Part shown: positions 26,001 to 58,914 of the stretch, in pieces
How the letters are laid out: the number at the start of each line of letters is the position of its first letter
Position numbering within the stretch: the stretch's first letter is position 1
Assembly: GCF_964204645.1 (NCBI RefSeq)
Contig: NC_134028.1
Span: 6,820,001-6,884,000, forward strand
DNA from: Tubulanus polymorphus
Lineage: Eukaryota > Animalia > Nemertea
Direction of reading: 5' to 3'
Length of the DNA stretch: 64,000 nucleotides
The notes under the pieces: model-generated
What the model saw: only the letters and a program-made list of their open reading frames with translations
Told to the model about the DNA's origin: nothing
Databases searched by the model: none
Made by a program: the position numbers and the translations under genes

Positions 26001-29000
26001 ATGTGGCCAACTGGGACAAAAACAGAGTTACTTTCTGAGTCCCTGTCTTTTCTGGTCCTTTAGTTTTTCCAAGTTACTCAAGGTGTATTGTAATAAAGTA
26101 TCAATATGAACTGTAATGAAGTTTCAATCCGAACTGATCATGGTCTCTATCTTGCTTTCGACAGGGACGCGGCGGTAAAGGAGCCATATATATCTGGGCG
26201 TCCGGTAAAGGCGGCCTGCTGTCGGGCGATAGCTGTTCGTACGACGAATACGTCAATAACATTTACACGATCGCCGTCGCCGGAATTAAAGAGGATAATC
26301 GGCGTCTGCTGCGCGGAGAAAGGTGTTCGGCTATTATTGTATCGGCTTATAGCGCCGATTCGGGTGAGACCGGAACGCTAGACGCCACTATGCAGCAACA
26401 ATCATTGCGTAATATCGTAAGTATTTTTTCAGTCGATTGCTGAGAGCCGCTTTGAATTCCGAGAGCATGTTAGGGTAGCTACTAGGTTATTTCGAGGATG
26501 TACCAGTGAGTAGTTAATTTGTGGGAGAAGCCTCTGCTAAGAATTTACCGTGTTTTGGTCGTGGGTCTTTCTTCAATTCCAAAATATAAACAGTTACTTG
26601 TCCATGGAACCAACACAGCATGAAATGTCAGATTGATGCTTTGCTAGTGTACATTCTATAATCTTGTATTGGTATATTTGATGATGAAATTTTTAATATG
26701 GCAAAAAATATGGAACCAAGACACATCATCTTTAGCAGGGATTCATTTGAATTGCGTCACTGGACTTGACCATAAACCTGTCATAGTGGTAGTCATTTGA
26801 ACCTGATAATGGCACCACAAGACTCTGTCACGGTACAAAATCCTGCCCTATTGCTAAAGAAATCCAGGGATTCAAACCCGGTGGAATCCTTGGTATGAAA
26901 TGCCCGCCATGTAGTTTTGTCCTTCTAGCAGGGAATCAGATGTCATTGAGTATTTGCCACGGTGGTATAGTTCAAGATACAGTCATGGTTGATATAGGTT
27001 TTGTGGCAAATTTAGCAACTTAAGACAAACCTTGGTACTTAAGACGGCTTAAGTCGCGACTGTGCAACACTGTACCTTCACCCTATTTCAAGTTGTCGAA
27101 TGATAATCATTTCAGGTGTCGCCGTCCGGTAAGAGTATTTCTGAATGTGATACGGATTTCGCCGAATCAGGTGCCGCAGCTTCGATGGTCGCCGGTGCAG
27201 CTGCCTTAGCGTTACAAGTCAAGTAAGTTTTCACATGCGTATCGTCAAGAAACTTTCGGTAGCGGTAGTGAAATATCATCGATATTAAAGCCCCAACAGC
27301 ATCACAACTGAAACGAAATTTATCGTTGAAAATGACATATTATTATCATTGGATCATAGAGAAAGTGACTGTGACTTTGTATGTTCAATCAAGGAGGCCA
27401 TACACATAAAATCATGCCAACCTAAACTAAACTAAACTTTTTTTCGCTAGCTGTGCCTCATATACCCTTGATGTATTCTAAAATGCTTTACTGTCACGCC
27501 AATTGATCTCTGTAAATCAGGTATTCAGATGCTGGTAGTTGTTTATTTCTGTGGGCTTGTATACCCTTCTGGGCATTGTTTATTTCGTACATCATACCTG
27601 AGCAAAATTGATCGTGATATATTATTTTCAAGGTCAGGATGAAATAGGTTATAGCAGTTATTCTGTAGTGGAAATAAATTAAAGTCGGTACTTGTATATG
27701 CGCTCGTGTTCGTATGTATTTAACATTGTCGTTGCGTCCAATTTCAGTCCAAAATTAACTTGGAGAGACATGCAACATCTCATCATACGAACGTCAAATC
27801 CGTACATCGGATTCCGAACCAAACAAAATCGCGACGAATTCATCACAAATGCCGCTAATTTCAAAGGTGAATAAATTTTCGTCGAAACTTTATGTGGAAA
27901 ATCCGTTTTTTCGCTAGGTTTTTTGTTTAAAAAAAGAATTATGATACAATTCGAATTAGATGAACCATGATGCTCTTTCTCTGCAGTATCGCCGACGTTC
28001 GGCTTTGGATTGTTGGACATCGGAAAAATGGTTAAACTGGCGCGAAAATGGCCGGAACTTCCAAAAAATATGACCTGCATCATACCCGGACGTTTAATCG
28101 CTAAGTATGTTCCAGAAATTAGTTAAGAGTTCAGTATAGAATCTAATTGTTTTATATCATGAGTCGTAGCCTGGTTACCCTTCGGTCCAACAGCCTCCTC
28201 TAAAACACGGTTTGATTATTTGCGATCTTTTTAGTAAATGTTCTTTCAATTTGATTAAGATGGGTTTCAGGCCGGTTTTAAGTGTTCTTGCAGATCTGAT
28301 CTGACCGGGAAATCAAGAAAAATCAGTGAATCGCAGATTAATTTTTAGCCCACTTGGGACTTTAGTCCCAGCGGGCTATTGCGTTCACTTTCCGTCCGTC
28401 CGTTCGTCCGTCCGTAGACGGAATCCAGTTATTTTGGGAAGTTTTGAAGACGCTTCAAGGTAATGTCTTGATATTTGGTTTTTTACATGTATCTACCCTA
28501 GACAAAATCTTCAGCCCAAAAACTGGCCCTATCAGAATCAAGATGGCCGACTGGCAGCCATTGTTGTTCGCCAAAATCAGCACTTTTTACACATTTTCGA
28601 AGTTTACGAGGGAAATTTTGAAGACGATTTGATCGTAAACTTCGAAAATGTGTAAAAAGTGCTGATTGGTACCTAGGCATATTTTGTTACCATGATCAAT
28701 TACAAAGTTGTAGTTCATGACATGTTCTATGAATATGGTGAGTTACAAGGTTATTGGGTTTTGAATATGGTCACCAGGGGGCGTTGAATAGTAGATTAAC
28801 TTAGTATTTCCACATTAAATTAGTAACGAGGCATTTTTTGTTATCACAATCAATTACAAAATCATAGCTGCTGACATGTTTTATGATTGTATTGAGTTTC
28901 AAGGTCATTGGTTTTTGTATATGGTCACCAGAGGGCGTTGAATATTGAAATTGTTAGATTGTTGAGCATTTGAAACCACTTCCCAAGTGGGCATGGTGTC

Positions 29001-35867: not shown

Positions 35868-36240
35868 TGGCACATGGAAACAGGGGACAGAAACATGTTT
35901 CCGATAGTTTCCCAGCGTTGTGCGCGTTTATGAGAAATATGGTTTTGGTTACGATGTTTCCGGGATCAAACATGTTTGATTCTGTTTCCCTGCGTTGAGC
36001 TTTACAGTCATCAGCAACTTTTTCAAAATGCACACAACACATGGAAACAGAAAACAGTAACATGTTGCCGAGCATTTCCCAGCGTCGTGTGCGTTTACGA
36101 GAAATATGGTTTTGAAAACCAACGTTTCCAAGATCAAGCATGTTTGATTCCATATTTCTCTGTTTCCCTGTGCAAGTTCACAAGAAATGAGAAGCATAGT
36201 TTCTGTGTTTTCTTGCGTCCTGTGCGTTGGGCTTCACGGT
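35868..36240. repeat. Tandemly duplicated ~170-bp imperfect palindromic repeat
   Basis: Two units starting CATGGAAACAG...TTTCCCAGCG...GAGAAATATGGTTTTG...TGTTTCCCTG; related sequence at about 18810-18920. Confidence 0.6.
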
Positions 36241-38500: not shown

Positions 38501-41500
38501 ATGGCTGAAGATAAAAGGGATTCGGCGACTTCACGGAAAACTGAAACGATGTCCCAGAAACAAATCGCTCGTACACAAAACAAGAAAAGAAAAATCGAAG
38601 CTTTCTTGGCTCTGGCAAAAAAAACGGAATTACCTGATGATAAAGTAAAGAAGGTGAGGAGGGTCTGCGTCTGGTAATTGAAAAATTTTCAGGACTTTTG
38701 CGCCAAAATTTTAAATAAGTGTTAATTTATATTATGATGCAATTTTATGTATCAAATCGATTGCGAATCTCGACAGAAGGGGAAGTATGAATTCGACGGA
38801 AAATCTCCCGAAGAAATAATTCAGATGAAGATCAAAATGGTGGAACTTCGTGAACAAAAATCAGCCGTCGAAAAAGTAAAAAAAAAGGTAGGCCTATAGA
38901 AAATATTTTAAAAACTCAAACTAGTATCGGCACTAAAGTTGGTAATCAGACTTAGCGATTGGATATATTCGCATATCACGTGTTGGCGCAATCAAACTGG
39001 GTTTTAAAGTCGTTATTTGTCGTCACTAATAAAATTTAATATTAAAAGAGTTCTACATTTTGTTGGAATTTGGTTTTCTTTTTTATTTCAGGATTATCCC
39101 AAATTGTCTCTGACATTAACTGAAATGCCCAATGCCGATACGTCTGTCATTCTACATATGGCTGAAATTCAGAAGTTTTTGGTATTTGCTGTTACCAAAG
39201 GGACATTGGGCAGCACCAGGTAAGACTCGAAATACAAGCTAATAGCTGGAAATATGAAAGTTTCTAAAAACTGTTAATTTCCGCAGTCTTGAAATGATTT
39301 TGATTTCAACTGGAAATGGTTCAGTCAAAGACTGGAAGTAAATATCTGTTTTTGATATCGTTTCAGACCTTGGTGTAAATTAATGAAACCATTGTCTATT
39401 AGTCACGTGGGATTTTTAGTTATTGATGGTGTTAGTATTAAGGATTTCAAAGAACACAAAGATGCCTTCCCGAATTTACAGAACCTCTTCGACTTGGTAA
39501 TGTGAACTTTTACTTTCTAAATATATGTCCATTTGCTTAGGACTGAAAGTATTTATGTTATAATATCGATTCTGTGAAATGTAAGATTTCACAAAGCGAA
39601 ATTATGATTGATAAGCTCCTGGGTATTTCACGAAAACCTTCTCTTTCTCAATGACTTATCTTGGTGATTTCAGTCAGTGGAAGTTTTAACTCCTGATTGT
39701 TATGGAATGGATGTAGCTGATGAGGTATTCAAGATACCTATGACCAAGGAGCGAATCAATTCGCATGTCAAAAAATTTGGAAGTAAGTTAAATCAATCTC
39801 ATAGATGACGAGAGCAAGGGCTGAGTACTTAAAGCATATTTTGGTGCCCTATATGTTGTTGCAGGATGACCACTTATGCGGATATCAGGGAAAAACGGGG
39901 GATTTTCTTTTCTTCAATAAATAAAATTTTTAAAAAAAGCTTAATATCAAGGAACAAAAGTCGGCGGGGATATTCGATAAGATTGCTAGATTGTGCATAA
40001 AAAATCAAACAGTTTCCGTCTATGTCTTATGTCTTCGACTGATTTAATTGATTGAATTATTAGCAGATCAAGTCAGGGAAAACGAGGTGCATGTCAGGGA
40101 ATTGTCAGGGAATAATCAAGTCAAATAAAAGTGGCCATCCTGTTAGTTACTAACAACTTTAGATCAGTCTTTTTAACAATTTTGTGTCGATTCAACACTG
40201 CAACTGTTCCTTGATGAATTTTCATGATTAATTGGGTTTATTTTAAGTAGATTTTGAAGTTAAACCTTTCTGTGAAACCGGGCCCGATTGAAAGACATGT
40301 TCCGCAGATTTAACTGCTTCGTAAAATTGTTGATATCGCATCGAATTGATAGAAAATTTCTATTACAGGACCAAAGGAAATCGAAGGCCCCATCGAAAGA
40401 CATAGATCAAAGCCGATCGTGATAAAAAAATCCGATGAAAATATAACTACCGGAGAGAATAACGGACCGGGACAAAACGACAACGGGTTCCAGGCTCGGA
40501 AGATCGAACATAAAAAGAAAATTGGTATAACCGAATCTGAAGACGTGTTTCCGCGCACTTGGTTACTGTTAAACGTTCATCAGATGCTGAGCGAAGGCTA
40601 CATTCTACCTGGTACAGGTGAATAATCCAAATTCGTAAATATCGGTATTTCGTGGTAAAAATTTTCTTGATGTGAAATTCACCCATTAGTCTCCACAGTA
40701 AGGCATGTTGTTAAATTTTTCTTTATGATTTCTCAATCTTCTGAGCGCGACTTGGGGCATTATTTCAATCAAACTTGTTTAAAGTCACCGTAGTTTGAAG
40801 TATCATAATGTTGATGACTTTTCCAAATAGCGACTTAGACTTAGTAAATTGAACTGGAAATACAAATTGAAACAACTTAGATCATGTGACAGCTTTTGCA
40901 ATGACTTAAACAAGTTTGACTGTAGAGAGGTTTGAAGTTTCTTTTTCCCTAATGTCGTCATAGAGACAAGATTGATAGGACTCGGAAGGAACTTGCTTCC
41001 ACCAGGATTTAGACCCATTAATCCTGAATTGACTATTGACCATTAGCTGATGGCTTACCGCTCAGCTACCACAACTCTCCAGAGCCGTCGGAAGGAATTT
41101 TTCAGTGGCGAGGCTTATTTCTGAAGGGTGGTCTGGGGGCCCTTCCCTAGAAAAATTTTGAAAATTCAATCGCCGGAGATGTGTTTTGGGGCCATTTCAC
41201 AGAAGCATGAGTAGTCGTGAGCCAACCACCTAGTACAGAGAACGACAAGCTGCTACGCGGTACAGCGTGCTTTTGAAAAAATTTTTGTTAAGCAAAAAAG
41301 TGGGGCGGATTTGGCCGCCCCTGCCGCCCCTGTTCCGACAGCCCTGCTTTCACTGTGAGAATAATTGACAAATTTGAAATGTTCTTTACATGAAGATGTG
41401 TGTGTTAAACTTGTTACTCTCTGTAAACCGCCAGCTCTGATGTGATTATCGCTTATTTTAACACACAGGTCATGAAGATACCACCTATAATAACTATGTC

Positions 41501-44500
41501 TACACGACGACCGGGAATTATCAACCAGTTACCGATTGCAGTCCCATGTTTGCGTTGGATTGTGAAATGGTACGAAACCATGTCTTCTTTTGATATCGTG
41601 TTAAAACAAACTTACAGTCAAAACCAGCTTAATCCGGATCGGCTTACCGTCATCTGGATTTTGGTCTAATTGCAATCCATTTGTACATGGATATACAAGA
41701 AAATGACTTAATCCGGATTTCCCATAAACTGGATTAATTTTGCCAAATGATCCGAATTAAGGGGATTCTACTGTATAGATATATGATGCATCAGCTCTCG
41801 AATTCGAAAATGTTTCAAAATCGGTTTTTGTAGGTGATGACTACTGCAAAAACGAATGAACTAGCGCGAGTGTCCCTCATCTCAGAGGACGGAATTTGCA
41901 TTTACGACAGTTTAGTCAAACCATACAACAAGGTTATTAATTATCTTACAAAGTAAGTCATCTGGAAGCATTCGAAAAGCATGGCGTGTGGGTATGCAGA
42001 GCTCAATTTAAATTATCTATTTATTTTATTATTGTTTTTACTTTATTTCCTGCGTAAATTAAAAGAGTATAATCAAGTACATCATGTTTATAAAATTGAA
42101 TATGATAATATGATCATTATAATTGATAAAATGTTATGATATATCAGTGGGACAACATAAAGAAGCAAGGCTTGTGACGTATGCTGACCAAAAAAATATA
42201 TATATTTACAGGTATAGTGGTATTACGAAGAAAATGATGGATCCAGTACAAACTCGTTTAAGAGATGCACAACGAACCATACAGAAATTGTTACCACCAG
42301 ACGCGATATTGGTAGGACAATCTATGGCCAATGATCTGAAAGCTTTAAAGGTAAAGTGTTTCGTTTAATATCTTAGTGCGGAAAAACTAGCACATCGTAG
42401 TAGAATTATTATTAGACTATTTAAAACTGAAAAATTAAGGCTAACAAAAAATTTATTCCCATACAAATTGAAAATAGATGAAAAGTTTGCCAATTAGCAG
42501 TTTTTCCTATATCACGAGTTATGTGACAAGATGTCGATATCGTTGTATTTTGTAGATGTATCATCCGTATGTCATTGATACGAGCGTTATCTATAACCAA
42601 AGCGGTCAACGAACTAGAAAAACTGGCCTTGCTCGCCTCACTCAAATTTTCTTTGGGTAAGTTTTGGAAAATCTTCATTTCTAGGTTTTGTCTTATTGTC
42701 CATGGTTCAGAGCAGTCGTTGAAAGCGTTTGAACTTAGGAGGGCTGGTGAAGGTGTTAGAATTGAGATGCATCGGCGAATTTTCAGAACTCTCAACCCAT
42801 TTACTGTTTCGAATTAGTGCGATGGGATCATTCATTTATTACGTACGCACAAAATTTGAATTTTTCAACCCCCCTCCCCCCATGTACACAAAAGCGGTCA
42901 TTTTTTCATATACATTAAGCATTACAGTACACAATGGCACTTACCCCTCCCCTAATGCGTGCGTAATAAATGAATGACCCCGATTCAGTTCTGGTGAATT
43001 GTTGTCGATTTTCTTTCAACAGTACTGTAATTCAAGCTGATTCTGGTGGACATAATCCAGTCGAAGATGCTTCATCTGCATTGAATTTAGTTCTGTTGAA
43101 ATTAAGTAAAGGTAAAGAAAAAATCCATGACCAAGTTCCGTGATATTGCTGGCTTAATTAAATACCAACATTAATACGTATTTCCAATAACTTAACTGAG
43201 GTCTTAGGCAATTAATAGAATAACGATTTTTATTTCAGGGTTTGAATTTGGCGATGTACTTATGTCGCAAAACGTATCTTATACGGAGGCATCTCACTCG
43301 GCTACCGCAGTTGGCTCCTCTTCGATTCCGCCCGTATCATTCCAAACGCATCGCGAAATGAAAATTTCTAATGATGATCACGACAGTAAATTGATTTGCG
43401 TCGAGGAAAAATGTGATAAAACAATTGCTAAAACGACGGATAATGAAAAGCTGAGTGATAGGCTAGAGATAGGCGATAGCGGGAAAGCAGTAACTGAAGC
43501 TTGGAGAGACGAAGTTAAGATGAAAGTGTTTTATTCCTGTGGATCGAAATTGTACGATGACTTTTTCGCTAAGATTAAGACCTGCGACAGAACCGGTACG
43601 AAAGCTTAAAACATAGTATCCAATTCCATGAAAAAGTTAAACTCAATTTGATGTCTTCATTAGTTCCGTTTAGCGGTACCGTATGATTTAGGGGTTAATC
43701 TTTTTCGTGAAAGTGGCCAGTCCCAGAGCATCACACACAAAACATTAGAAAAATCCCTGTATTTGAAGCAAGCATCATTTAGTTTATTTTATGATTATAT
43801 ATTTAACAATTACGTGTGTACATCTTTCACCTAAATTTGAGAGATGATGAAAAACACAAATAAGTTATTCAAGTTGTTCAATAACTGATTTATCAATTCA
43901 AAAGCAAGACTAAATTTGAACAAATGGACGTAATAATAATCACAATGATAATAATAATTTCTTTGTTTATATAGTGCTATAGTATGAAATAATCATAGCC
44001 CTTTACATAAAAGAGGTTAAAATAATACATGTAATAATCATAAAATTGTTGAAATACCACTCGAATACAAGAACATGAAAATTAATTGTAAGAAACATCA
44101 TACAATGGTCAAAGCTTTCCTAAAAAGGTGATGAAGTGTACATGTATACAGATATAATGTTTTGATCAATATTCTTTGATAAACCTTTGAAATTTTGCTA
44201 TCGTGAGGATTATATTTAGATCATGTAAGGCAATAGTGTGATTAGTAACTTGTGACGTTACTGATAAAAGTTTTCTATTTGATATTTTCAAGGTGTTGTT
44301 ATTGATAAAAAGTCTAATGCTACACACGAAAGTGACTACATTAATTATGAGTATTGCGACGATTATGATGAAATCAGCAAGAAGGCTGCTTCGACTATTG
44401 CGAAATTTGACTTTGCGTTTATTCGTTTGGAAGGCTACAGAAAATATACCGTTGATTCAACCAAGATGGATGAAAACCTTGAGAAAAGACTGGTACGTGT

Positions 44501-45006: not shown

Positions 45007-45370
45007 CCTGCCAGCAATTTCTTATTGAAGATTTTAAGAATGTTTAAACCTGTTATGAATCTGGTTATAGATGTTTATCATCATGTAAATAAATAAACAT
45101 ATGTCTATATTATCGTAAAATTAAATATTTTGAGTCGTTTATATTTTATGTTATGTATAAAGTACTAGGATCCACCGGTACCAGTGAATTCGGTATACTG
45201 TTCAAGTCAGCGAATTTTAATTTATTTCTTCTACAATGAATTCTCAGCTCAATAACGTAGGCGAAGTCCGAGTTAAGGATAGGAGAATATGTTAGGAAGT
45301 CGGAAAAAATGATTTCGTTTTTGTTCGGAGTTATTGTAGTAAACAGCGGTATTTCGTTTCCAACGCGACT

Positions 45371-45952
45371 AGTAATAGGGATAATAGGCTTTCATACCAA
45401 AGGTCGAAAGGTCGAGCTCATTAAAAAACAAAATATTAAAAGTAATTAAAAACTATAATATATTTTCATAACCGCGTGCATTTTATATCAAAACTAAATA
45501 TTTATTCTAAGATATCAATAATTTTAAATGCATATTGTATTAAATCAATTGGTCGCTCCGCTTCGCTACCGCTCCGCTCCGCGACCAATTGATTTATTTA
45601 CAATACACAAATTCAAATAATCAAATATATTTTAATGATAATAATTATTCTATTATTCTATTATTCAACTGAAATGCACGCGGTTATGAAAATATATTAT
45701 AGTTTTTAATTACTTTTAATATATGTTTTTAATGAACACGACCATTCAACCTTTGATATGAAAGCCCATTATCCCTATTACTCTTAAAATATTCATATAA
45801 ATGAATAAAATATAAATAAAAAAAAATATAGTATTAAAATGGAAGCAAATAAGTACTACTGCCCAACATGTAATAACGATATAGACAAGTCTCAAAAAGC
45901 AAGACACAATAAAACTAGAACACATTTAGAAAATAAATTGAAAATAGAGTAT
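45371..45952 (+). repeat. Left TIR, first 412 bp forming an imperfect hairpin
   Basis: Reverse complement of about 58119-58716; includes the first 38 codons of the PolB-like ORF; 45371-45782 is self-complementary. Confidence 0.92.
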
Positions 45953-46978
45953 AAAGATGATATATTAGAAACTAAATTAGAAGAATTAAAGAATGAAAAA
46001 GAAACATACAAATGTGATACATGTAATCAATCATTCAGTGATAAAAGATATTATAAAGAACATTTAAAATCTATAAGTCATATTAGAAATAAGAATAATG
46101 ATATTTTAGGTGAAGATTATTCTGATAATGATAACGATAAGAAACAGAAGACAATTAAAAGCATAAAAAATAAATTAAACAATAAAAGATCATACATGGA
46201 AGATGTAAGAAATTATATCAATTCATTAGATAATAAAAAAGATAAAGAGATAACCGAAGCATTTAAAAGTGATATTGGTCCAGCAGCTATCGAGTTTAAA
46301 TTTCATAAAGGTAAAACATTAGAAGAAAATAAAAAACATTTAGAAAATATGAAAAATATTATAAAAATAATTACAGATGTTGAATATCCTAAAATTAGTA
46401 TATCAGTTAAAGTAAAGTTTATAAAATCTGAAGATAAACCAATATATAATATAAATTCTCATTCACAACATATTATATCTAAACAACATATAGATGATAA
46501 ATTAGATAAATGTTATAATGAAGTAAAAACTAAAATAGAAGAGAAATATTTTGAAGGATCTGGTTTAATATTTGATGAGATAATATTTATAACTTTACAT
46601 GTTTATAACACAAAATATAATAAGTTAACTAAATCAAAACCAATTGATGAAAATAATTTATCATATTATAAAGAACCAGATATTGAAGCATCGAGTTATA
46701 TTAAACTACCATTTAAAACTAATGCTGTAATAAATATACAAAATGAAGATGATAAATGTTTTCTATGGGCTATAATAAGTTGTTTACATCCAACAGAAGA
46801 TATTACACATAGTTTTAGATTAACTCATTATAAACCATTTGAAAATAATTATAAGATAGATAAGTATCCTGTTAGAATTAAAAACATCCCAAAAATAGAA
46901 AGAGATAATAATATAAAGATAAATGTATTTGATTTAATCAAATTACCAAATACCAATAAGGGTAAAAAAATATTTTAA
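45839..46978 (+). CDS. Truncated Polinton-type protein-primed DNA polymerase B N-terminal region with two C2H2-like zinc fingers
   Basis: CPTC...H...H and CDTC...HLKSISH fingers; EGSG...SSYIKLP...AVINIQNEDDKCFLWAIISCLHP...IPKIE..N.I.INVF block that I recognise from Polinton/adintovirus PolB N-termini. Cut at 46952 by the inner palindrome, before any exonuclease or polymerase motif. Confidence 0.7.
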   Translation: MEANKYYCPTCNNDIDKSQKARHNKTRTHLENKLKIEYKDDILETKLEELKNEKETYKCDTCNQSFSDKRYYKEHLKSISHIRNKNNDILGEDYSDNDNDKKQKTIKSIKNKLNNKRSYMEDVRNYINSLDNKKDKEITEAFKSDIGPAAIEFKFHKGKTLEENKKHLENMKNIIKIITDVEYPKISISVKVKFIKSEDKPIYNINSHSQHIISKQHIDDKLDKCYNEVKTKIEEKYFEGSGLIFDEIIFITLHVYNTKYNKLTKSKPIDENNLSYYKEPDIEASSYIKLPFKTNAVINIQNEDDKCFLWAIISCLHPTEDITHSFRLTHYKPFENNYKIDKYPVRIKNIPKIERDNNIKINVFDLIKLPNTNKGKKIF

Positions 46979-47048
46979 AGCGTAAGGTTTCAGCGAACTC
47001 TAACTCTTTTTGAATTTTAACCTATTTTAATAAAAATTTGATATATAA

Positions 47049-48701
47049 ATGTGCACAAGATTAATTAAAGTTCCCGCGAAAGACATGAGTAATAAATATA
47101 TAAATTCAATATTATATTATTTAACTGTTAACAATAATTTAGCAGATATTTCAGGAGTAAATATAAATAAGTATTATAAATCTGAAAATAATGAATTAAT
47201 TGAAACATCAGATATATTTTGCGATAATATAATGCTATATAAAATCATGTGAGAAAAAGAAATTATAAAAGAAAATAGAACAACTTTTCTAAACATTAAT
47301 CAGAGAAAGATAACACATTATGAAATTAAAGAATGTTTTAATCAAGGAGATATTATATTGGATAACTTAGCTATAAAAATTACACGTGTTTTAACAATTC
47401 ATGATGATAATTCAAAATCATATATATTAAGTAGAATTAATCAAGAATTAAAATTAACAGATTATATTGCTGTATTTAAAATTTCATTATGCAATCAAAA
47501 TTTAAATGAATTAATACAGAAAATGGATAATATTGAAAAATTATTAAATGAAAAAAATTACAATATATTAGATGTAGATGTGACACAAGATTTTAAAGGA
47601 TCATTTAATTCAGATGAAATAAAATCAATGTTCGAAAATAGAAAATATAAAGTTCTAAAAGAATTTTCCAATAGTTGTGTTTCAGCATTACATAAGGATG
47701 ATAAAATAAAGATCTATAATAAAACAGCATGTCAATTCAAATCTCCTGGTGTAGATATAAATTTCGGTTCAAATTTAATGAGTTACATAAATTGCTATCA
47801 AGAGAGGTTAAAAGAATCATTTGAAAAATCAATTGAAACAGGATTGATTAGAATTGAAATAACAAGTATTTCATTTAAAAGAGGATTAAAAGTGATGGAA
47901 AAAATAAAACAATACTTAAAAAAAGAAAATATTTACTATTCACCTACATATTTACAACTTAAATCATTATTTGATGAGGTTCAACAGACTGTATGTATTT
48001 ATGATTTGATTGAAAAATGCTTTTATTTCTGTTATTATGGTGATTTATTAGCAAGGAAATTTATAGGATATAAATCTAGGATAAGTAAAAATATTGAAGA
48101 GTCCTCCTTTTTACTTATTTTATCAATGTTTACAATTAAGAATATCCCATGTTTATACCTAACAATTAATCAAAATGATGATAAATCAGCATTCATTATT
48201 GAAGCAAAAAAATATATTAAAACTGAAGGAGCAACTGTTATATCTTCAACTAATTCAATGTTTACAGTATTGAATAAATTTATATTTAGATTTAAATTAC
48301 GTGAAACAGGAATTAGTTTTACAACTTTAAAAAAGAGATACAATATAAAATCTAAACCTTTTTATAAATTAGATGCACTTGATATTGAAGAAGATTTTGA
48401 TTTAAAATTATTATCTAAAAGTGAATTTAAAAAGTTAGAAGAAATGAAAGAACTTAAACAATTACAAGAAGATATAGATGAAAATAGAAATAAAATTTGT
48501 AATGAATTAAAGCAACAATTAGATATTGATAATGAATTATTTGAGACAGAATTTAAAAAACTTGAAATAATTCCTGAAGTAAAATTAAATGATTATACTC
48601 CTAAAATATCTGGAATTGACAATAATACAATTTTTGAAATTAGAGGTTTTTCAACTCAATGTAAATGTATAACAGATCTTTATTTCAGTTATATTTTTTA
48701 G
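47049..48701 (+). CDS. Putative Rep_trans-like rolling-circle initiator, about 550 codons with one in-frame TGA (47250-47252)
   Basis: The 67-aa and 447-aa ORFs share a frame and are joined by 35 open codons after a TGA. Motifs ILDNLAIK, LDVDVTQDF, KIYNK and LIRIEI occur in Rep_trans order. Confidence 0.55.
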
Positions 48702-49327
48702 CAGATCAAGGCTTTTATGAAACTACTACTGATTTAAGAGAATTATTGATAAAAACATTACAATTAGACGTATTAAATAATAATTATTTTGAATTGTCTT
48801 CGATAGAAAAAATCATCAAAAAGTTAAAAATAGGCGTTCATAGCCCTGATAGACACTTTATTTTATCAAAATTAGAAAAACCTATTTTCCAAGTAAAGAA
48901 GATAACACACGATCATTTTGAAATAATTGATAAAATGGATTTTGAATTGATGAAAAAATATACTGAATATTTAAAGATAAATTCTAATGATTTCATAAAT
49001 GTATGTGATATACGTAAAGAATCTGATTATTTAAGAAAAATGAAACTTAACAATATGAAAATTAAGCAATGCGAGCGTTTAGAACTATTGAAAGATAATT
49101 CTGAATATAATATTGATTTCATTAATCCTAGATATTTTAGAAATAAATTGCGCCATCTAATTTTAATTCATAATGATGAAAATATTTACATATCAAATGA
49201 ATTTTTCGATAAAGAAATGATCAAGAATAATATAACAGAATATCAGGTGATAAAATTGATTACGCACAAGCAAAAATATAATTCTCAGCGGCATAAAGAA
49301 TTAGTAGTAAGTTTAATTGTTATTTGA
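48665..49327 (+). CDS. Hypothetical 220-aa protein (separate gene or frameshifted C-terminus of the Rep-like ORF)
   Basis: Long ORF in very AT-rich DNA, TAAATG start, overlaps the upstream ORF by 37 bp. Confidence 0.6.
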   Translation: MYNRSLFQLYFLADQGFYETTTDLRELLIKTLQLDVLNNNYFELSSIEKIIKKLKIGVHSPDRHFILSKLEKPIFQVKKITHDHFEIIDKMDFELMKKYTEYLKINSNDFINVCDIRKESDYLRKMKLNNMKIKQCERLELLKDNSEYNIDFINPRYFRNKLRHLILIHNDENIYISNEFFDKEMIKNNITEYQVIKLITHKQKYNSQRHKELVVSLIVI

Positions 49328-49384
49328 ATTGAAACATATAAATATTTAACATTTTATAAACTGTTTAATTTCTTTCTTAAATAA

Positions 49385-49582
49385 ATGGATGGTTTCATCC
49401 CAACTGGGAAAAGTGATTTGAAACATCATCTTGTAGCAGGAGGATTAATATTGGCTGCGCTTTATTTATACTATGAGAATATTAGTAAGGATTTGATGAA
49501 TGAAAATATAAAATTGAGCAAGAAATTGAAAAAATTAAATGGAAATAAAAATAATCATAAAAAAGTTATTGAATCAGATTAG
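49385..49582 (+). CDS. Small putative membrane protein (65 aa)
   Basis: TAAATG start; hydrophobic LVAGGLILAALYLYY followed by a Lys/Asn-rich tail; identical in both arms. Confidence 0.55.
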   Translation: MDGFIPTGKSDLKHHLVAGGLILAALYLYYENISKDLMNENIKLSKKLKKLNGNKNNHKKVIESD

Positions 49583-49598
49583 TGAATTAATTAAATAA

Positions 49599-49823
49599 AT
49601 GAGTGAAAATATATTAAACTTATTACATCTAATATATAAAAATCAACAGAATATTAAATCAATTATTATGCTTACAGGTTTATTTTCTTTTTCAATTTAT
49701 AGTATAAAACAGTTGTTAGAATTCTATGATTGCTGTAAAATTAGATACACTGAATTAATAGAAAATATGAATTATATTTCAGATAGATTGATTTCTATTC
49801 AAATAGATTTAACAAGAATATAA
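49599..49823 (+). pseudogene. 3'-truncated copy of the 100-aa ORF at 50777-51079
   Basis: Identical up to YISDRL, then runs into the central hairpin sequence. Confidence 0.65.
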
Positions 49824-50398
49824 ATTTATAAAATAAAATCCTAATTCAAAATATTATAGAATTCACTGTATATTGATGGATGAGTGGATGAATTGGATGA
49901 ATTGGATGAATTGGATGAGTGGATGAATGGATGAGTGTAATAATATATATATTTTACTTTTTAACACATAAATTGGAAGAATAGTATGAGTATAAATATA
50001 ATATTTATATTCTTTATTAAATTTAACACAATATATATATATTATTAAAATAATATTTAAATATAATATAAAATTGATAAAATAACTTCAAATCAAACTC
50101 TTACTGTTTTAAAAATAAAAAACATATGTAAATTATATATTATTACACTCATCCATTCATCCACTCATCCAATTCATCCAATTCATCCACTCATCCATCA
50201 ATATACAGTGAATTCTATAATATTTTGAATTAGGATTTTATTTTATAAATTTATATTCTTGTTAAATCTATTTGAATAGAAATCAAAAAGATTTAAATAA
50301 AAAAACAATAAGTTACTTTATCTAGTACTAACTTATTTAACTTATTGTTTTTTTATTTAAATCTTTTTGGATTTCTATTCAAATAGATTTAACAAGAA
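49788..50398. repeat. Central hairpin complex with GGATGA(G/A)T(T) tandem repeats
   Basis: Stem 49788-49957 pairs with 50128-50286; second stem-loop 50256-50398. Confidence 0.9.
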
Positions 50399-50776
50399 AT
50401 TCAATAACTTTAACTGTTAGTATCACTCTTGTATTATTTCATTGTTTCTCTTATTGAATAAGCCAACTAACTAATATCACTCTTGTATTATCCTAGTTAA
50501 ATGTAAAGAATTTAAAATATCATACTTGAATGAATTAAAACATAAATTACTTCTGTTACTTCATTTTCAGAAATAAAGCATAATATGTATTCAATACCAT
50601 TAATACGTATTTAATACCATCAATACGTATTTGATACGTATTTAATACATGGTATTAGGGTATCTAATAGGGTATCTAATACATTGATACCTCAACCCCC
50701 CTTTTTTATTAACTTTTATTTTCATACATTTCAACTAATATATTTTATATTTTCAGCTAATTTAACAGTCGATTTC

Positions 50777-51079
50777 TTATTTTGATTCATATAATTTTTC
50801 ATCAAGTTCATGAATATACATGTGATTTCTCAAACTCTTTTTATTTTCATATCTTTTATTGCATATTTCACAGCATTTAATATTATTCAATCTATCTGAA
50901 ATATAATTCATATTTTCTATTAATTCAGTGTATCTAATTTTACAGCAATCATAGAATTCTAACAACTGTTTTATACTATAAATTGAAAAAGAAAATAAAC
51001 CTGTAAGCATAATAATTGATTTAATATTCTGTTGATTTTTATATATTAGATGTAATAAGTTTAATATATTTTCACTCAT
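50777..51079 (-). CDS. 100-aa protein with a hydrophobic segment and C-terminal C2H2 zinc finger
   Basis: IIMLTGLFSFSIYSI; CEICNKRYENKKSLRNHMYIH fits the C2H2 consensus. Confidence 0.65.
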   Translation of the reverse strand: MSENILNLLHLIYKNQQNIKSIIMLTGLFSFSIYSIKQLLEFYDCCKIRYTELIENMNYISDRLNNIKCCEICNKRYENKKSLRNHMYIHELDEKLYESK

Positions 51080-51095
51080 TTATTTAATTAATTCA

Positions 51096-51293
51096 CTAAT
51101 CTGATTCAATAACTTTTTTATGATTATTTTTATTTCCATTTAATTTTTTCAATTTCTTGCTCAATTTTATATTTTCATTCATCAAATCCTTACTAATATT
51201 CTCATAGTATAAATAAAGCGCAGCCAATATTAATCCTCCTGCTACAAGATGATGTTTCAAATCACTTTTCCCAGTTGGGATGAAACCATCCAT
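51096..51293 (-). CDS. Small putative membrane protein (mirror copy)
   Basis: Identical to 49385-49582. Confidence 0.55.
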   Translation of the reverse strand: MDGFIPTGKSDLKHHLVAGGLILAALYLYYENISKDLMNENIKLSKKLKKLNGNKNNHKKVIESD

Positions 51294-51374
51294 TTATTTA
51301 AGAAAGAAATTAAACAGTTTATAAAATGTTAAATATTTATATGTTTCAATTCAAATAACAATTAAACTTACTAC

Positions 51375-52013
51375 TTATTCTTTATGCCGCTGAGAATTAT
51401 ATTTTTGCTTGTGCGTAATCAATTTTATCACCTGATATTCTGTTATATTATTCTTGATCATTTCTTTATCGAAAAATTCATTTGATATGTAAATATTTTC
51501 ATCATTATGAATTAAAATTAGATGGCGCAATTTATTTCTAAAATATCTAGGATTAATGAAATCAATATTATATTCAGAATTATCTTTCAATAGTTCTAAA
51601 CGCTCGCATTGCTTAATTTTCATATTGTTAAGTTTCATTTTTCTTAAATAATCAGATTCTTTACGTATATCACATACATTTATGAAATCATTAGAATTTA
51701 TCTTTAAATATTCAGTATATTTTTTCATCAATTCAAAATCCATTTTATCAATTATTTCAAAATGATCGTGTGTTATCTTCTTTACTTGGAAAATAGGTTT
51801 TTCTAATTTTGATAAAATAAAGTGTCTATCAGGGCTATGAACGCCTATTTTTAACTTTTTGATGATTTTTTCTATCGAAGACAATTCAAAATAATTATTA
51901 TTTAATACGTCTAATTGTAATGTTTTTATCAATAATTCTCTTAAATCAGTAGTAGTTTCATAAAAGCCTTGATCTGCTAAAAAATATAACTGAAATAAAG
52001 ATCTGTTATACAT
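51375..52013 (-). CDS. Hypothetical protein (mirror of 48665-49327, 8 aa shorter)
   Basis: A TTA>TAA change gives an earlier stop. Confidence 0.55.
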   Translation of the reverse strand: MYNRSLFQLYFLADQGFYETTTDLRELLIKTLQLDVLNNNYFELSSIEKIIKKLKIGVHSPDRHFILSKLEKPIFQVKKITHDHFEIIDKMDFELMKKYTEYLKINSNDFINVCDIRKESDYLRKMKLNNMKIKQCERLELLKDNSEYNIDFINPRYFRNKLRHLILIHNDENIYISNEFFDKEMIKNNITEYQVIKLITHKQKYNSQRHKE

Positions 52014-53629
52014 TTACATTGAGTTGAAAAACCTCTAATTTCAAAAATTGTATTATTGTCAATTCCAGATATTTTAGGAGTATAATCATTTAATTTTACT
52101 TCAGGAATTATTTCAAGTTTTTTAAATTCTGTCTCAAATAATTCATTATCAATATCTAATTGTTGCTTTAATTCATTACAAATTTTATTTCTATTTTCAT
52201 CTATATCTTCTTGTAATTGTTTAAGTTCTTTCATTTCTTCTAACTTTTTAAATTCACTTTTAGATAATAATTTTAAATCAAAATCTTCTTCAATATCAAG
52301 TGCATCTAATTTATAAAAAGGTTTAGATTTTATATTGTATCTCTTTTTTAAAGTTGTAAAACTAATTCCTGTTTCACGTAATTTAAATCTAAATATAAAT
52401 TTATTCAATACTGTAAACATTGAATTAGTTGAAGATATAACAGTTGCTCCTTCAGTTTTAATATATTTTTTTGCTTCAATAATGAATTCTGATTTATCAT
52501 CATTTTGATTAATTGTTAGGTATAAACATGGGATATTCTTAATTGTAAACATTGATAAAATAAGTAAAAAGGAGGACTCTTCAATATTTTTACTTATCCT
52601 AGATTTATATCCTATAAATTTCCTTGCTAATAAATCACCATAATAACAGAAATAAAAGCATTTTTCAATCAAATCATAAATACATACGGTCTGTTGAACC
52701 TCATCAAATAATGATTTAAGTTGTAAATATGTAGGTGAATAGTAAATATTTTCTTTTTTTAAGTATTGTTTTATTTTTTCCATCACTTTTAATCCTCTTT
52801 TAAATGAAATACTTGTTATTTCAATTCTAATCAATCCTGTTTCAATTGATTTTTCAAATGATTCTTTTAACCTCTCTTGATAGCAATTTATGTAACTCAT
52901 TAAATTTGAACCGAAATTTATATTTACACCAGGAGATTTGAATTGACATGCTGTTTTATTATAAGTCTTTATTTTATCATCCTTATGTAATGCTGAAACA
53001 CAACTATTGGAAAATTCTTTTAGAACTTTATATTTTCTATTTTCGAACATTGATTTTATTTCATCTGAATTAAATGATCCTTTAAAATCTTGTGTCACAT
53101 CTACATCTAATATATTGTAATTTTTTTCATTTAATAATTTTTCAATATTATCCATTTTCTGTATTAATTCATTTAAATTTTGATTGCATAATGAAATTTT
53201 AAATACAGCAATATAATCTGTTAATTTTAATTCTTGATTAATTCTACTTAATATATATGATTTTGAATTATCATCATGAATTGTTAAAACACGTGTAATT
53301 TTTATAGCTAAGTTATCCAATATAATATCTCCTTGATTAAAACATTCTTTAATTTCATAATGTGTTATCTTTCTCTGATTAATGTTTAGAAAAGTTGTTC
53401 TATTTTCTTTTATAATTTCTTTTTCTCACATGATTTTATATAGCATTATATTATCGCAAAATATATCTGATGTTTCAATTAATTCATTATTTTCAGATTT
53501 ATAATACTTATTTATATTTACTCCTGAAATATCTGCTAAATTATTGCTAACAGTTAAATAATATAATATTGAATTTATATATTTATTACTCATGTCTTTC
53601 GCGGGAACTTTAATTAATCTTGTGCACAT
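51977..53629 (-). CDS. Putative Rep_trans-like initiator, mirror copy with the same in-frame TGA (53426-53428)
   Basis: Four amino-acid differences from the left copy (N>S, I>T, D>N, A>E). Confidence 0.55.
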
Positions 53630-53718
53630 TTATATATCAAATTTTTATTAAAATAGGTTAAAATTCAAAAAGAGTTAGAGTTCGCTGAAACCTTACGCTT
53701 TAAAATATTTTTTTACCC

Positions 53719-54033
53719 TTATTGGTTGAATAATTGTGTTAATCTAGATCTTAAGCATTGTTTCAATCTAAAATTAAGATCTGTTTGATATCTTTCTCTC
53801 ATATATTTTGTCATATAATAATTATAATGTTCTATATTATCTTCTCGATATTGTTTAGTATATAGTTTAATGCAAGTTTTACAGTAATATTGAAAACCAT
53901 CTTTGCTAATCTTACGCTTACTAAATTCTGTTAATGATTTATCTAATTCACATTTAGAACACTTCTTGTAATATATGTTTATAACACCAGTGTTATTTGT
54001 AATATTGATAGTTTGTGGTTGTTCTGGTTCCAT
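53719..54033 (-). pseudogene. N-terminal fragment of a phage/giant-virus-type zinc-ribbon (HNH/endonuclease VII-associated) protein
   Basis: KKCSKCELDKSLTEF...KDGFQYYCKTC...RYQTDLNFRL...LRSRL pattern; stops where the palindrome arm begins; no nuclease motif remains. Confidence 0.6.
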
Positions 54034-54989
54034 TTATTATACATATTTTTTTACTGAATTGGTTAATATTTTAGAATCCTCTTCCATTTCTTCGACCAAC
54101 GTCATCCTTTTTCATTCTTCGTTGCTTTTGATAAGTTGTTTCGATTCCTTGATATCTAAATAATACCAGTTACAATACCCGCGTCACATGCTGCTATTTA
54201 TAGCCGGTTTTGCTTAATGCACATGCGTTAATCATAATTATATATTCATTCTATAAATTCTGTAAAATAGAAACAACTGAACATAGAAAATTCGAACGCA
54301 TTCATGTCCCTCGTCACATGCGTTACATGTGTCACATGCGGCCATTTATGGCCGGTTTTGCTTAATGCGCATGCGTTAATCATAATAGAAACGACTGAAC
54401 ATAGAAAATTCACAAATCAGATTTACACAATACATTATACAAGTTGTTCAGTCATTTCTTCCAATACATCATTTGATTTCTATAAATACAATTTATAATT
54501 ACAAACATTTTTCAATTGCCGGTAAATATTTAACTACATCAACAAATGTTAAACTTAATCATTGGAGTCTTAATGTTTTTGAAATTCTTATATTTCTTCT
54601 TCGATCTTTTGGTGATTCTATTGGTTCGATATCCATTGCTGTTGATTCCTCAGGTAGAAAGAGTATCTTGAGTTTCTCTATCGCTTCTTGATGCGTATGA
54701 CTTTTTATTAATCTAAAAGATATTAGCGGCAACTCTAGCCATCTGAAAGATATACTAAATACACTTAAATATATCTAAAGGTTTCATATTTAATAGTCTT
54801 AATAACTACAACAAACAGTACTTACATTTAGATTTATAATTGTAAACTATAAACTCCTAATTTCGTTTCGAAAGATAGAATATCCTGAGCACAATATTAC
54901 AGCGTATGTTCATTTCCGGGGCGATTTCTAGAATGACACGTCGTTGATTATGCCACGTCATCTAGTTCCGGTTCTAGAGTGTTCTCTCT

Positions 54990-57856
54990 GCGAATTTTTT
55001 TTTCACACCATGTCAGATAGCCACTGCGCATGCCCAACTCAGTTTCGCTTCCGGACTGCATGTCGCAATGCATGAAGAAATCCATGATGTGAACGACAAA
55101 ATCTACTGTCGACTCTTGACTAAATATAAGCTGTGGTAGGAGGCCTAGCGCCAGCCAATTGACCATGATTGACTACTTGCCAGCTTCGCGTCTCAGACCA
55201 GTAGGAAACCGAAGTAAGTTAATGGTTTCATTCTTTTTACAGGCACGTTTTTCCTTCTTTGACTTTAATTCAATTCAATTCAATTCTTTATTATCATACA
55301 TGATTGTAGATGCAATGCAATTGTAACAAAAATAAAATGATATAAAATAGAATAAAACACAACACAACATAAGCATTAGACTTATTCGTTATACAAGAAT
55401 ATGTATATATACATGTACATTCTACTTAATATATTACCATTAAGTGACAATTTTTTATTTATAAGTTGGAAAACCCAAAAGCTGTAAACTGTCCTAGGCT
55501 ACGTGTCATTAGTGGGGACGAAATGATTAATAGGAATTTATCTTCATCAGAGAAACTATTATTTGGGAATATAAGAAATGTCGGAATTGCCCAAAATTTG
55601 GCCTGTCAGTGTCAGACCCCCGCTGTCAGACCACAGCTCCCTCATTTGTAGGCTCAAACTGTGACGGTAGAAATCTGAACTATTAACATTCTATTAAGAA
55701 TTTGCAACTTAAACTTTTGAAGCCAATTAATGTCTATTGTAAACATATAGGCCTAAAATCATGACAGTGTATGTGTTGAGTGTGATAAGCCGCAATACCG
55801 AGTTGTGTAGATCTTCTCCCAAAATTTGCAGAGAACACCTCCGCAGGCTTTACACTCTAGCGCTTCTGACGCCTGCTCCACCAACCTCCCAAGACGCAAC
55901 GAGTCCTATTTAAAAACGTGCGGCACCTCATAAATCAGACAGTTTTGGTCAAATTCACATAAGATGCCAACCAAATTTCTCTGTTTTAATTTTAGGCAAA
56001 GAATATTATCGTGATACTAAAATGTAGTTATTAAATAATGTGAACAATGCTTAGATAACAAGTATGGATTCAGCTATAGTAACGGTAAGTTGATTTTATA
56101 TCACAAGTCCTTTGTGTGAGGTTCTCTACAGGGGGTCATGGAATACGGAATACTAATTTGAAGTGGAATACAGCATAAAAAGCTGAAAATTGTCGATTTT
56201 GCTGAAATTCTTGGAATACAAGGAGAAAACTGTCTTGTTTTGCCATCGGAATACGGAATACAGGGATATTTTCCAGATTACATATGCCAAATTCCTTGGA
56301 ATACAGCATACAAACACCCTGTCGAGGGCCTCTTGTGGTTTCCTGTCTTCGCACTGGGCATAAAATATCTTGGACGAGTTTCTTGTTGCTGACTGGCCGC
56401 CATTAATGCATGGTTCCCAGCTTACCGGGAAAACGGGAAAAAGTAGGGAATTTAAAAATTGAATTCCCGGTTGGGAAAAGTCAGGGAATTGATCAAAATT
56501 TGATAGAATCCGGGAAAAAGTAGGGAATTACAAAAACTCTGTTCAGATAGTCATGTCAGTTGATTGGTATATGATGTTATATGTAAATCTGTACAATATT
56601 TCTTATGGCTATTATCTTTATTACATGTGCCTGATATTGACACAGCATATGAAAATATTTCCCGCAGGAGAATCAGTCAATTGCGTATTCCGCCGACCAG
56701 TTTTGGACAGTTCACTGTCGTGGAGGAACATTCTGCTGAAGTTGGTGATCTTTTAAAGTATCCGTCCATTCTGCCAGAAAATGTATGCACCACTCTTATC
56801 AAGATATTGGACTCCAAGCCCAATCATATTGTTAAATTTTCGCATTGTTCATATGATCGTGGAGCTCTTTCTTTCTGTCGTATTATTCAAAGTTGGCGTC
56901 AGATACAAATTGAGGTTGAGAGGGAGGATACCTGGTTTAAAACCCTCAAGAAAAAGATATGGTATACCAAAGAAATGGATGGACACCTGAGCAAGTATCA
57001 TAGCATTGTAAACAATTCCCCATACAATTCCTCTCTTGGTGAGCCATTATCCTACCTGTCACCCATGAACCTGTGCAGGTTTTCTTGCTCCAGTTGGTAC
57101 AGCGAATTACAGTTTAATGCTATTGGCTATATATACTGAACGAGAAGACCGAAAAACTGTATACATTTCCGATTGGGGATAAAGCTGTTTTAAAGGACAG
57201 TTACAGTTATTATGTTATGTTTTGTATTGTTAATTTTGACAATGTAACTTCTGTTATTACTGATGATCATACTGGCAAACACTGGACATTTGTATTATAT
57301 GACAAAGTAAATAATTGTATATATTATCAGAACTTTCTTCATTTTAAGGGAAATAGCCAACCGGTCTGCTTATAAGTACTGATGGCAATTTGAAAGAAAT
57401 ATTAGACTTCCATGACACAAACTTAATTAAAAATGTTGAAAAAATTTTATCCTCACCAACATTTGCAAAATGGGTATTTTTTAGGGATAACAGGGGCAGG
57501 GTTATGCTATATATTAATGAATGTAATGTAACCATCTAAAAGGCTATTTTTGTATTAATTTAATTTTGTAATATTTTTGTATGCGTTTCTGATGCCATTT
57601 GATATTGAATAAACCTTCAATTTGCAGTTCTTTCTTAAGTTTCTTTTATCAAATTATTATCTGAGATATTTTTTGGATGATGTGATCTGTGTGGATTTTA
57701 CTCTCATAAAATTTATATCATTACTGTTTGTGTGTGACTACAGGGCCATCAAAATGCAGCAGATGATATTTCGGCATTAAAAAGTCACGTGATGCATGTG
57801 AACATGTTGTAAACGCTACAACAAAATGGCGGACCTGGTGTGAAAAAAAAATTCGC
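54990..57856. mobile_element. Nested DNA transposon with 9-bp TSD (Mutator/MULE-like, apparently non-autonomous)
   Basis: Perfect 21-bp TIR GCGAATTTTTTTTTCACACCA; TSD GTTCTCTCT at 54981-54989 and 57857-57865; host-like base composition; unassigned 191-aa ORF at 56564-57139. Confidence 0.8.
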
Positions 57857-57980
57857 GTTCTCTCTCTCTCTCTGCACGTTTGTAATAATGAGTCATAAGT
57901 CTCGGCGTCATTGTAACAGCTGTAACAGCTGTGAATTTATAGATTTATTCTATAGCTCTGTACATTGAATGTATATAGGT

Positions 57981-58232
57981 TCAAATAGAATCATTTTCTA
58001 GTATAAACATCGGATCCTTGATATCAAATTCCTCAACGTATTGTTCATTATTTGGATCATTATTCCATAATTCAATAAATTTCTTTCCCTTTGTTAACTG
58101 TTCTGAATATAACTGTAAATATTCTATTTTCAATTTATTTTCTAAATGTGTTCTAGTTTTATTGTGTCTTGCTTTTTGAGACTTGTCTATATCGTTATTA
58201 CATGTTGGGCAGTAGTACTTATTTGCTTCCAT
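57981..58232 (-). CDS. 83-aa ORF sharing its first 38 aa (zinc finger) with the PolB-like ORF through the TIR
   Basis: Identical MEANKYYCPTC...LKIEY, then a unique acidic tail. Confidence 0.45.
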   Translation of the reverse strand: MEANKYYCPTCNNDIDKSQKARHNKTRTHLENKLKIEYLQLYSEQLTKGKKFIELWNNDPNNEQYVEEFDIKDPMFILENDSI

Positions 58233-58716
58233 TTTAATACTAAATTTTTTATTAAAATTGATTTTAGAAGTTCAATGATTTATATTTTATTCATTTATAT
58301 GAATATTTTAAGAGTAATAGGGATAATGGGCTTTCATATCAAAGGTTGAATGGTCGTGTTCATTAAAAACATATATTAAAAGTAATTAAAAACTATAATA
58401 TATTTTCATAACCGCGTGCATTTCAGTTGAATAATAGAATAATTATTATTATTAAAATATATTTGATTATTTTAATTTGTGTATTGTAAATAAATCAATT
58501 GGTCGCGGAGCGGAGCGGTAGCGAAGCGGAGCGACCAATTGATTTAATACAATATGCATTTAAAATTATTGATATCTTAGAATAAATATTTAGTTTTGAT
58601 ATAAAATGCACGCGGTTATGAAAATATATTATAGTTTTTAATTACTTTTAATATTTTGTTTTTTAATGAGCTCGACCTTTCGACCTTTGGTATGAAAGCC
58701 CATTATCCCTATTACT
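58119..58716 (-). repeat. Right TIR, terminal 404 bp (58313-58716) forming an imperfect hairpin
   Basis: Reverse complement of the left TIR with small indels. Confidence 0.92.
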
Positions 58717-58914
58717 GCGACTGACTAAAGCGGGGGTAGTGTTTTATGAAATGGATGTGATAAAAGCGAAATTACATAAATGTGTATTTGATGTAGAAGA
58801 AAAGTGCCTTAAAGAAAATCTCAGGCATACGATCGTACGTATTCCGGTTAAGGAATGACAATTTCGGATAACAAACTCTACCGGCCTTCTATCAGGTTCA
58901 AAAAGATTATGCTA

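Follow-up and report, generated by a model that had tools for sequence, protein, structure and literature searches.

The window, i.e. the whole 64,000-nt stretch of Tubulanus polymorphus DNA that was analysed, contains a block of 21–22% GC in which the two arms of an inverted dimer are found. The arms are 99.6% identical and mirrored around a hairpin at 49788–50286, each carries a copy of an initiator-like gene, and the dimer is lodged within a larger element resembling the Mavericks. The flanking parts of the window resemble intron-broken eukaryotic DNA with repeats, and five flanking ORFs gave no match to Pfam. The features concerned are as follows.

45365–45370 and 58717–58722: 6-nt duplication GCGACT around the outer element
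45371–58716, unstranded: outer high-copy Maverick/Polinton-like non-autonomous element, with AGT...ACT ends and inverted ends of approximately 590 nt
45839–46978, plus strand: zinc-finger ORF of the outer element, cut at the left junction of the dimer
46952–49802, plus strand: left arm of the inverted dimer, 2851 nt
47049–49327, plus strand: initiator-like gene, approximately 760 codons, intact homologs covering both of its ORFs
47196–47939, plus strand: predicted TBP-fold catalytic domain (residues ~50–297), from a structure model and conserved residues
47223 (D59), 47478 (K144), 47577 (D177), 47715 (Y223), 47721 (K225), 47850 (R268) and 47856 (E270): active-site codons
47250–47252, plus strand: in-frame stop of the initiator-like gene
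near 48690–48700, plus strand: frameshift of the initiator-like gene
48665–49327, plus strand: ORF for the C-terminal part of the initiator-like gene, matching homolog C-termini
49385–49582, plus strand: 65-codon ORF with one hydrophobic stretch, with a copy at 51096–51293 on the minus strand
49788–50286, unstranded: central hairpin, with perfect arms of 122 nt and an AT-rich imperfect centre (z −41)
49877–49934 and 50149–50198: GGATGA repeats of the central hairpin, seven on the left and six on the right
50256–50398, unstranded: second palindrome, overlapping the central hairpin, with short repeats following at 50581–50681
50777–51079, minus strand: 100-codon ORF with a C2H2 zinc finger (Pfam E 1.6e-4, below cut-off)
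50876–53726, minus strand: right arm of the inverted dimer, 2851 nt, carrying the other gene copy (start 53629), which has both breaks as well
53719–54033, minus strand: Endonuclease VII/HNH-like ORF of the outer element (phrog_1035, E 5.7e-12), cut at the right junction of the dimer

Mavericks/Polintons are recognised by long inverted ends, AG...CT termini and a 6-nt target duplication. The outer element is presumably one of these on the basis of its AGT...ACT ends, its inverted ends and the GCGACT duplication; integrase, PolB and capsid genes are absent from this copy. Its zinc-finger ORF resembles the N-termini of protein-primed PolB proteins (PolB clusters at 0.79–0.82), a likeness to be taken as a lead only. 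In run X5 the outer element had a read depth of 300–700 and hundreds of reads showed varied flanks for it, whereas the depth was approximately 28 over the initiator gene and 7 over the left flank. Due to this difference, the initiator module is considered a rare passenger of the outer element and not its engine. Each end of the outer element (45371–45782 and 58313–58716) is an imperfect palindrome of 400 nt with a GC-rich tip, and CGCTC repeats are located near 45554–45586 and 58501–58533, as if this element also had fold-back ends. A block of higher GC content at 54983–57868, skipped by reads of other copies (58 in X5), is either a later insertion or captured host DNA. Elsewhere in the window, short open frames resembling RNA exonuclease exons occur at 40353–43609 (weak SDN1 match, E 0.035), while other dispersed inverted and direct repeats (14959–21036, 16511–17226 with 28507–28951, and 35871–36114) are probably host non-autonomous transposons.

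In the preliminary description a coiled-coil-like tail was noted behind the motifs of the initiator-like gene. This segment is a linker only, the gene going on in another frame through ORF 48665–49327, and intact homologs of 716–790 aa span both this ORF and ORF 47049–48701. As homologs of full length match ORF 48665–49327 with their C-termini (P0137, E 4e-23; P0004, E 1e-10), the gene is taken to extend over 47049–49327 with one stop and one frameshift, both of which are common to the two arms of the dimer. In other runs, both reads and contigs depart from the window sequence at the two break sites, and uninterrupted copies of the gene therefore probably exist in the species. An alternative genetic code was also considered for the stop at 47250–47252 and was rejected; since close homologs offered no support for it and reads of other runs differ there, the stop is regarded as a break in this copy. 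The window gene is a broken, duplicated member of an unnamed protein family.

The left arm of the dimer is without approximately 600 nt beside the hairpin, being joined at a 4-nt microhomology, and this deletion cuts the second copy of the C2H2 ORF at 49599–49823. The dimer ends at one and the same element base on either side, each of its outer junctions interrupting a different ORF of the surrounding Maverick-like element, and one contig of run X3 runs past the junction point with other sequence. The hairpin that had been noted near the gene in the preliminary description is real, and part of it is unchanged in another run, a contig of run X2 matching positions 49946–50155 exactly. We infer that this hairpin was formerly the terminus and origin of the element. 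The 65-codon ORF had no match in Pfam. With regard to copy number, reads of X5 cover the two small genes at 50850–51389 two to four times as deeply as the initiator gene, which suggests non-autonomous derivatives or sharing with other elements, and the depth over the initiator gene itself (51390–53549) is approximately four times that of the left flank (28 vs 7). In run X1 near-identical initiator contigs have depths of 589–946, compared with 23–32 for flank contigs, which fits amplification and free copies equally.

A search of 1.84 billion cluster representatives gave 129 relatives at E ≤0.001, and a word search gave further close homologs at 44–52% identity. Of 131 homologs, 87 were retained in the alignment, those dropped being mostly short fragments, and the window protein was read through its stop as X; the homologs are 17–52% identical to the query. 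The four motif strings reported in the preliminary description do lie in one frame from the ATG at 47049, at the positions given there, with the codon of D105 at 47361, those of D175, D177 and D181 at 47571, 47577 and 47589, and those of the Tyr and Arg at 47715 and 47850. Strong conservation across the 87 homologs holds for three of these strings. Within LDVDVTQDF, D177 is found in 85/86 and D181 in 86/86 non-gap rows; Y223 and K225 of KIYNK are each found in 87/87; and R268 and E270 of LIRIEI are found in 84/86 and 82/85, respectively. The Asp of the fourth, ILDNLAIK, had been put forward as the N-terminal Asp and was rejected, as the column of D105 is variable (commonest residue Thr, 11/74) and its place is taken by D59 of an F-x-D-N motif (80/81 non-gap rows), the codon of which lies upstream of the in-frame stop. 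With D59 as the first Asp, the series D, D, Y, K, R and E is nearly invariant, and D59, D177, Y223, K225, R268 and E270 occur all together in 75 of the 79 homologs spanning these positions, though such conservation is partly selected for because the homologs were found by similarity. Further conserved columns are K144 (80/85), R219 (82/87), K221 (84/87) and G265 (86/86, all in non-gap rows). It should also be noted that residue 219 (codon 47703), just before the Tyr motif, is Lys in the window copy.

The motifs listed for Rep_trans in the available text of one review are an N' D, RxD, T/SxY/ExG, YxKxxE and W/LxRxE, with the Tyr located in a sheet (PMC5714925). Four of these five are present in order in the window protein, on predicted strands, with motif I lacking its Arg. 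The absence of this Arg had been remarked upon in the preliminary description and extends to the family, where position 175 is mostly Asp (64/86 rows); judging from the alignment, K144 may replace it. Motif II, T/SxY/ExG, was not seen in the alignment, which has a conserved N-C-L there instead. The motifs of RepC (P0161), namely F45-D46, R140-x-D142, Y191-N-K and R212-x-E214, are in the same order as those of the window protein. Pfam gave no match for window ORFs 47253–48698 and 48665–49324 or for eight homologs, and thus none to the profiles of Rep_trans (PF02486), Phage_CRI (PF05144) or DUF7845. No match was obtained for six homologs in PHROGs, or below E 0.8 in a sequence search of the PDB, and hhalign against 13 staphylococcal RepC proteins returned probabilities of 0.7% and 1.3% with a RepC alignment that is shallow. 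Among 70 family rows, an H-hydrophobic-H pattern of the HUH type was common to no more than one, and Walker A patterns occurred in three, with none shared across the family.

To the window protein a structure could be assigned by prediction. The model of residues 1–458 (pLDDT 94, pTM 0.92) has D59, D177, Y223 and E270 on beta strands, as described for Rep_trans. Foldseek against the PDB placed RepDE (4CWC) first (E 1.3e-3, probability 0.97, TM 0.18/0.26, rmsd 9.1), with 4CWE seventh and TBP tenth; no match reached E 0.001 and TM-scores were 0.18–0.27. Against BFVD, the inovirus G2P was sixth (E 3.4e-4) among many TBP-like and early transcription factor proteins. A second structural comparison was dominated by TBP, with no Rep_trans chain among the best 50 matches. 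With VIA-align, TBP had a Z of 8.1 (155 residues, rmsd 4.9) and half-domain matches reached Z 8.8, while RepSTK1 (Z 6.2, rmsd 5.4) had 167 residues aligned, the longest alignment among 50 rows; residues ~51–297 align along the full length of both TBP (Z 7–8) and RepSTK1 (Z 6.2). An atlas query with residues 1–420 of homolog P0004 returned Phage_CRI and Rep_trans clusters at 0.89–0.90, which serves as a lead only, those families being on 11–37% of the members of these clusters. The proposed fold is therefore upheld as a predicted TBP-like fold such as that of Rep_trans, with RepDE as the top Foldseek match in the PDB, at modest scores and with TBP equally good.

The fold by itself does not separate a nickase from TBP; the conserved residues do. 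The earlier suggestion of a tyrosine nickase of a non-HUH fold is supported by the predicted fold together with the near-invariant motif residues, and the window protein is very probably a TBP-fold tyrosine nickase of some kind. By prediction it is a Rep_trans-like enzyme in function, and by profile it is not a member of PF02486. In the C-terminal part of the family, the model of the last 244 residues of homolog P0281 (pLDDT 92) contains two barrels, which matched mostly OB folds (SSBs, LEF-3 and RPA) with a best Z of 5.0, so that this is a fold-class call only. These two modelled OB-like barrels likely bind single-strand DNA. In homolog P0135 the C-terminal barrels are followed, past the usual end, by another set of them and a zinc finger (residues 758–1090).

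Organism names were attached to seven of 44 homolog matches, these being five insects (Schistocerca, Planococcus, Cacopsylla and two Aphis), one ciliate (Tetrahymena utriculariae) and one bacterial bin, the last a 60-kb contig under the label Baumannia that is possibly host DNA placed in the wrong bin. Two of 20 clusters that were looked up carried an organism name, Planococcus citri in both cases. The insect homologs sit on chromosomes and the ciliate homolog on a scaffold, and most homolog contigs are a few kb in length. A pattern scan of prokaryotes (one genome for each of 185,579 species) yielded 136 pattern matches, leading to two loci, namely a 3.6-kb bin contig identical to locus L022 and a 33-residue match. 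Pattern scans, which are not exhaustive, found no relative among IMG/VR viral contigs and, in a first scan, no match in metagenomes, and tblastn with P0013 found no match in phages and plasmids.

At 30 metagenome loci the genes are intronless and stand beside ubiquitin-like, C2H2, GIY-YIG and D5-like proteins, with no capsid family detected among 26 neighbour proteins in Pfam or 12 in PHROGs. Neighbours at L003:207–881, L003:5366–5965, L004:3734–4315, L018:2131–3063 and L024:3168–5189 comprise a ubiquitin-like protein, GIY-YIG nucleases (by Pfam match in L004, by eye in L003), a DDE_Tnp_4 transposase and a D5-like helicase. A unit of 220–270 nt resembling a gene-cassette boundary was also seen in both orientations between different cargo genes of the related elements L015 (706–958 and 2289–2535) and L017 (820–1046, 1247–1468, 4208–4461 and 8436–8677).

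Fold-back ends were found at five of 60 family contig ends (in L001, L003, L015, where there are two, and L016) and at none of the 90 ends in a control set of viral contigs (Fisher p 0.009), the figures per whole contig being 5/30 and 0/28 (p 0.053). Terminal inverted repeats are present in L024 (127 nt) and in L017 (435 nt, missed by the strict script). A fold-back or terminal inverted repeat occurs in 6/11 loci of at least 4 kb, and 24 of the 30 related contigs are without either. The right end of L015 is the L017 repeat closed by a 39-nt loop, independent contigs have fold-backs with imperfect loops of 39–78 nt, and L024 contains an internal hairpin with CCCTCCTAT repeats resembling those of the window. 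No nick motif common to the hairpin sequences was obvious by eye, and a script test found direct terminal repeats in 0/30 related contigs. As the loci with such ends are partly kin (L001/L003 and L015/L016/L017) and the control was phage-rich and unmatched, the excess of fold-backs, which assembly or amplification can also produce, is suggestive but no proof. Ends of these two kinds, hairpins and inverted repeats, speak for a linear hairpin replicon rather than for a circular one copied as a rolling circle.

The closest known systems are likened to the window family as follows. Rep_trans (PF02486: pT181 RepC, RepDE 4CWC, RepSTK1 4CIJ) and Phage_CRI/gpII (PF05144) are alike in predicted TBP-like fold, in the order Asp, x-x-Asp, Tyr-x-Lys and Arg-x-Glu, in having the Tyr on a strand and in having a hairpin nearby. 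The window family differs from Rep_trans in that the Arg of motif I is mostly Asp, the gap from Tyr to Glu is 47 residues instead of 23, and there are an extra beta domain and two OB folds in proteins of 700–1000 aa; it also has eukaryotic hosts, apparently linear elements and no Pfam or profile match. Rep-Arvir (DUF7845, RepSNJ2), as described in the available text, is likewise a TBP-fold initiator recognisable by structure and not by sequence, with a conserved hairpin downstream of the gene, but is archaeal, with a KHYYM motif, a MarR-like wHTH and circular genomes (PMC13107129), whereas the window family has a YNK motif, OB folds and eukaryotic hosts. Helitrons and Replitrons, the latter being HUH enzymes in the available text of PMC10288648, resemble it in being mobile DNA of eukaryotes that has a tyrosine nickase and carries hairpins or repeats at its termini. 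These HUH enzymes differ from the window family, with its Tyr on a predicted strand and no HUH motif shared in the 70 family rows.

Parvovirus NS1/Rep is a tyrosine nickase acting on linear DNA with repeat-bearing hairpin ends and inverted dimer intermediates, and it is associated with an HUH fold, an SF3 helicase and a capsid; none of these last three was seen in the window protein or recognised beside it. Our preferred reading, to which we give a probability of roughly 0.55, is that the family comprises predicted TBP-fold tyrosine nickases related to Rep_trans, which replicate small linear eukaryotic elements by cutting and resolving hairpin ends, and that the window holds a dimer of such an element, captured in a Maverick-like element and decayed. 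By analogy with NS1/Rep, the enzyme would nick near the hairpin repeats, prime copying and resolve inverted dimers. D59, D177 and E270 would hold the metal and Y223 would attack one strand near the repeats; the freed 3′ end would be extended, and the hairpin copied, by enzymes of the host or by a helicase of the element such as that of L024, while the two C-terminal OB folds would coat the displaced single strand. Copying through an unresolved hairpin would give a tail-to-tail dimer, and that of the window would have been cut at the same base on both arms and captured inside the Maverick-like element, probably by repair, being now inactive. More broadly, there is about an even chance that the family represents a widespread, hitherto undescribed class of capsid-less linear replicons of ~5–10 kb in insects, ciliates and unknown microbial eukaryotes, replicating by a rolling hairpin with a third, eukaryotic branch of TBP-fold nickases having its own OB folds, and sometimes integrating or riding in Mavericks.

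It is unlikely that the Rep_trans-like nickase serves as transposase for a chromosomal transposon of the copy-out type, similar to Helitrons or Replitrons, with the hairpins as its ends and no free linear replicon. Such a transposon would agree with the chromosomal location of the insect homologs, the scaffold location of the ciliate one, the presence of several copies in one individual and the small-gene end being commoner than the enzyme gene. However, the dimer junctions, which interrupt two separate ORFs of the outer element, are without target duplication or distinct ends; beyond the junction another copy carries on into other sequence; and most homolog contigs are of a few kb, some ending in fold-backs. 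A somewhat lower likelihood is given to transpoviron-like satellites or small viruses dependent on a larger DNA virus or on Polintons, with the nickase as their replication module and the present copy carried in by a Maverick, an explanation that is compatible with the preferred one. In the available text, transpovirons are linear DNAs of ~7 kb with inverted ends and small nucleic-acid-binding and membrane proteins, to which correspond here the size, the inverted repeats at the termini, the zinc-finger proteins, the small hydrophobic proteins and the D5-like helicase of L024, the only counterpart of the transpoviron helicase, but no TBP-fold initiator is described there (PMC11788076). The insertion inside a Maverick-like element also speaks for satellites, as does the start of all three element genes of the window at TAAATG (9/62 background ATGs), a poxvirus-like start which was rejected as a family trait since it is found at only 2/49 gene starts in related loci. 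Against satellites stand the lack of a capsid family among the neighbour proteins analysed and of an IMG/VR relative by pattern search.

Both repair and strand-displacement amplification give rise to inverted dimers. This would suit ordinary rolling-circle replication of circles, with the fold-backs and the dimer as artefacts of assembly, amplification or repair, and, according to the available text of PMC13107129, the substrates of known TBP-fold initiators are circles whose origin contains a hairpin. Such circles are nevertheless very unlikely, as the script test detected no direct terminal repeat among the 30 related contigs, the imperfect fold-back loops occur in independent contigs and the hairpin centre recurs in another run. 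Least probable is a non-catalytic TBP-like DNA-binding factor, similar to viral TBP or early transcription factor domains: TBP chains do give the best full-domain Z scores, many BFVD matches are of this kind and there is no profile link to RepC, but the acidic triad and the Tyr, Lys and Arg are near-invariant in Rep_trans order across 17–52% identity.

The element class, which the preliminary description had suggested to be undescribed, appears to be so. Searches of the open-access literature brought up no eukaryotic Rep_trans-like family; subscription papers, Repbase reports and supplements could hold one. In the available texts, Rep_trans enzymes appeared restricted to bacteria until an archaeal branch was added (PMC13107129, April 2026), and the fold is given for bacterial and archaeal elements (PMC13595969, August 2026); in those of PMC11071296 and bioRxiv 10.64898/2026.10.13.758929, looking for the terms gave no mention of TBP or Rep_trans. 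If the preferred reading is true, the second replication-nickase fold would, with a eukaryotic branch added, be represented in all three domains of life, and the members of this branch would be the first non-HUH nickases tied to hairpin-ended linear DNA. The elements would also make up a class of mobile DNA in eukaryotes that goes undetected by Pfam and PHROGs.
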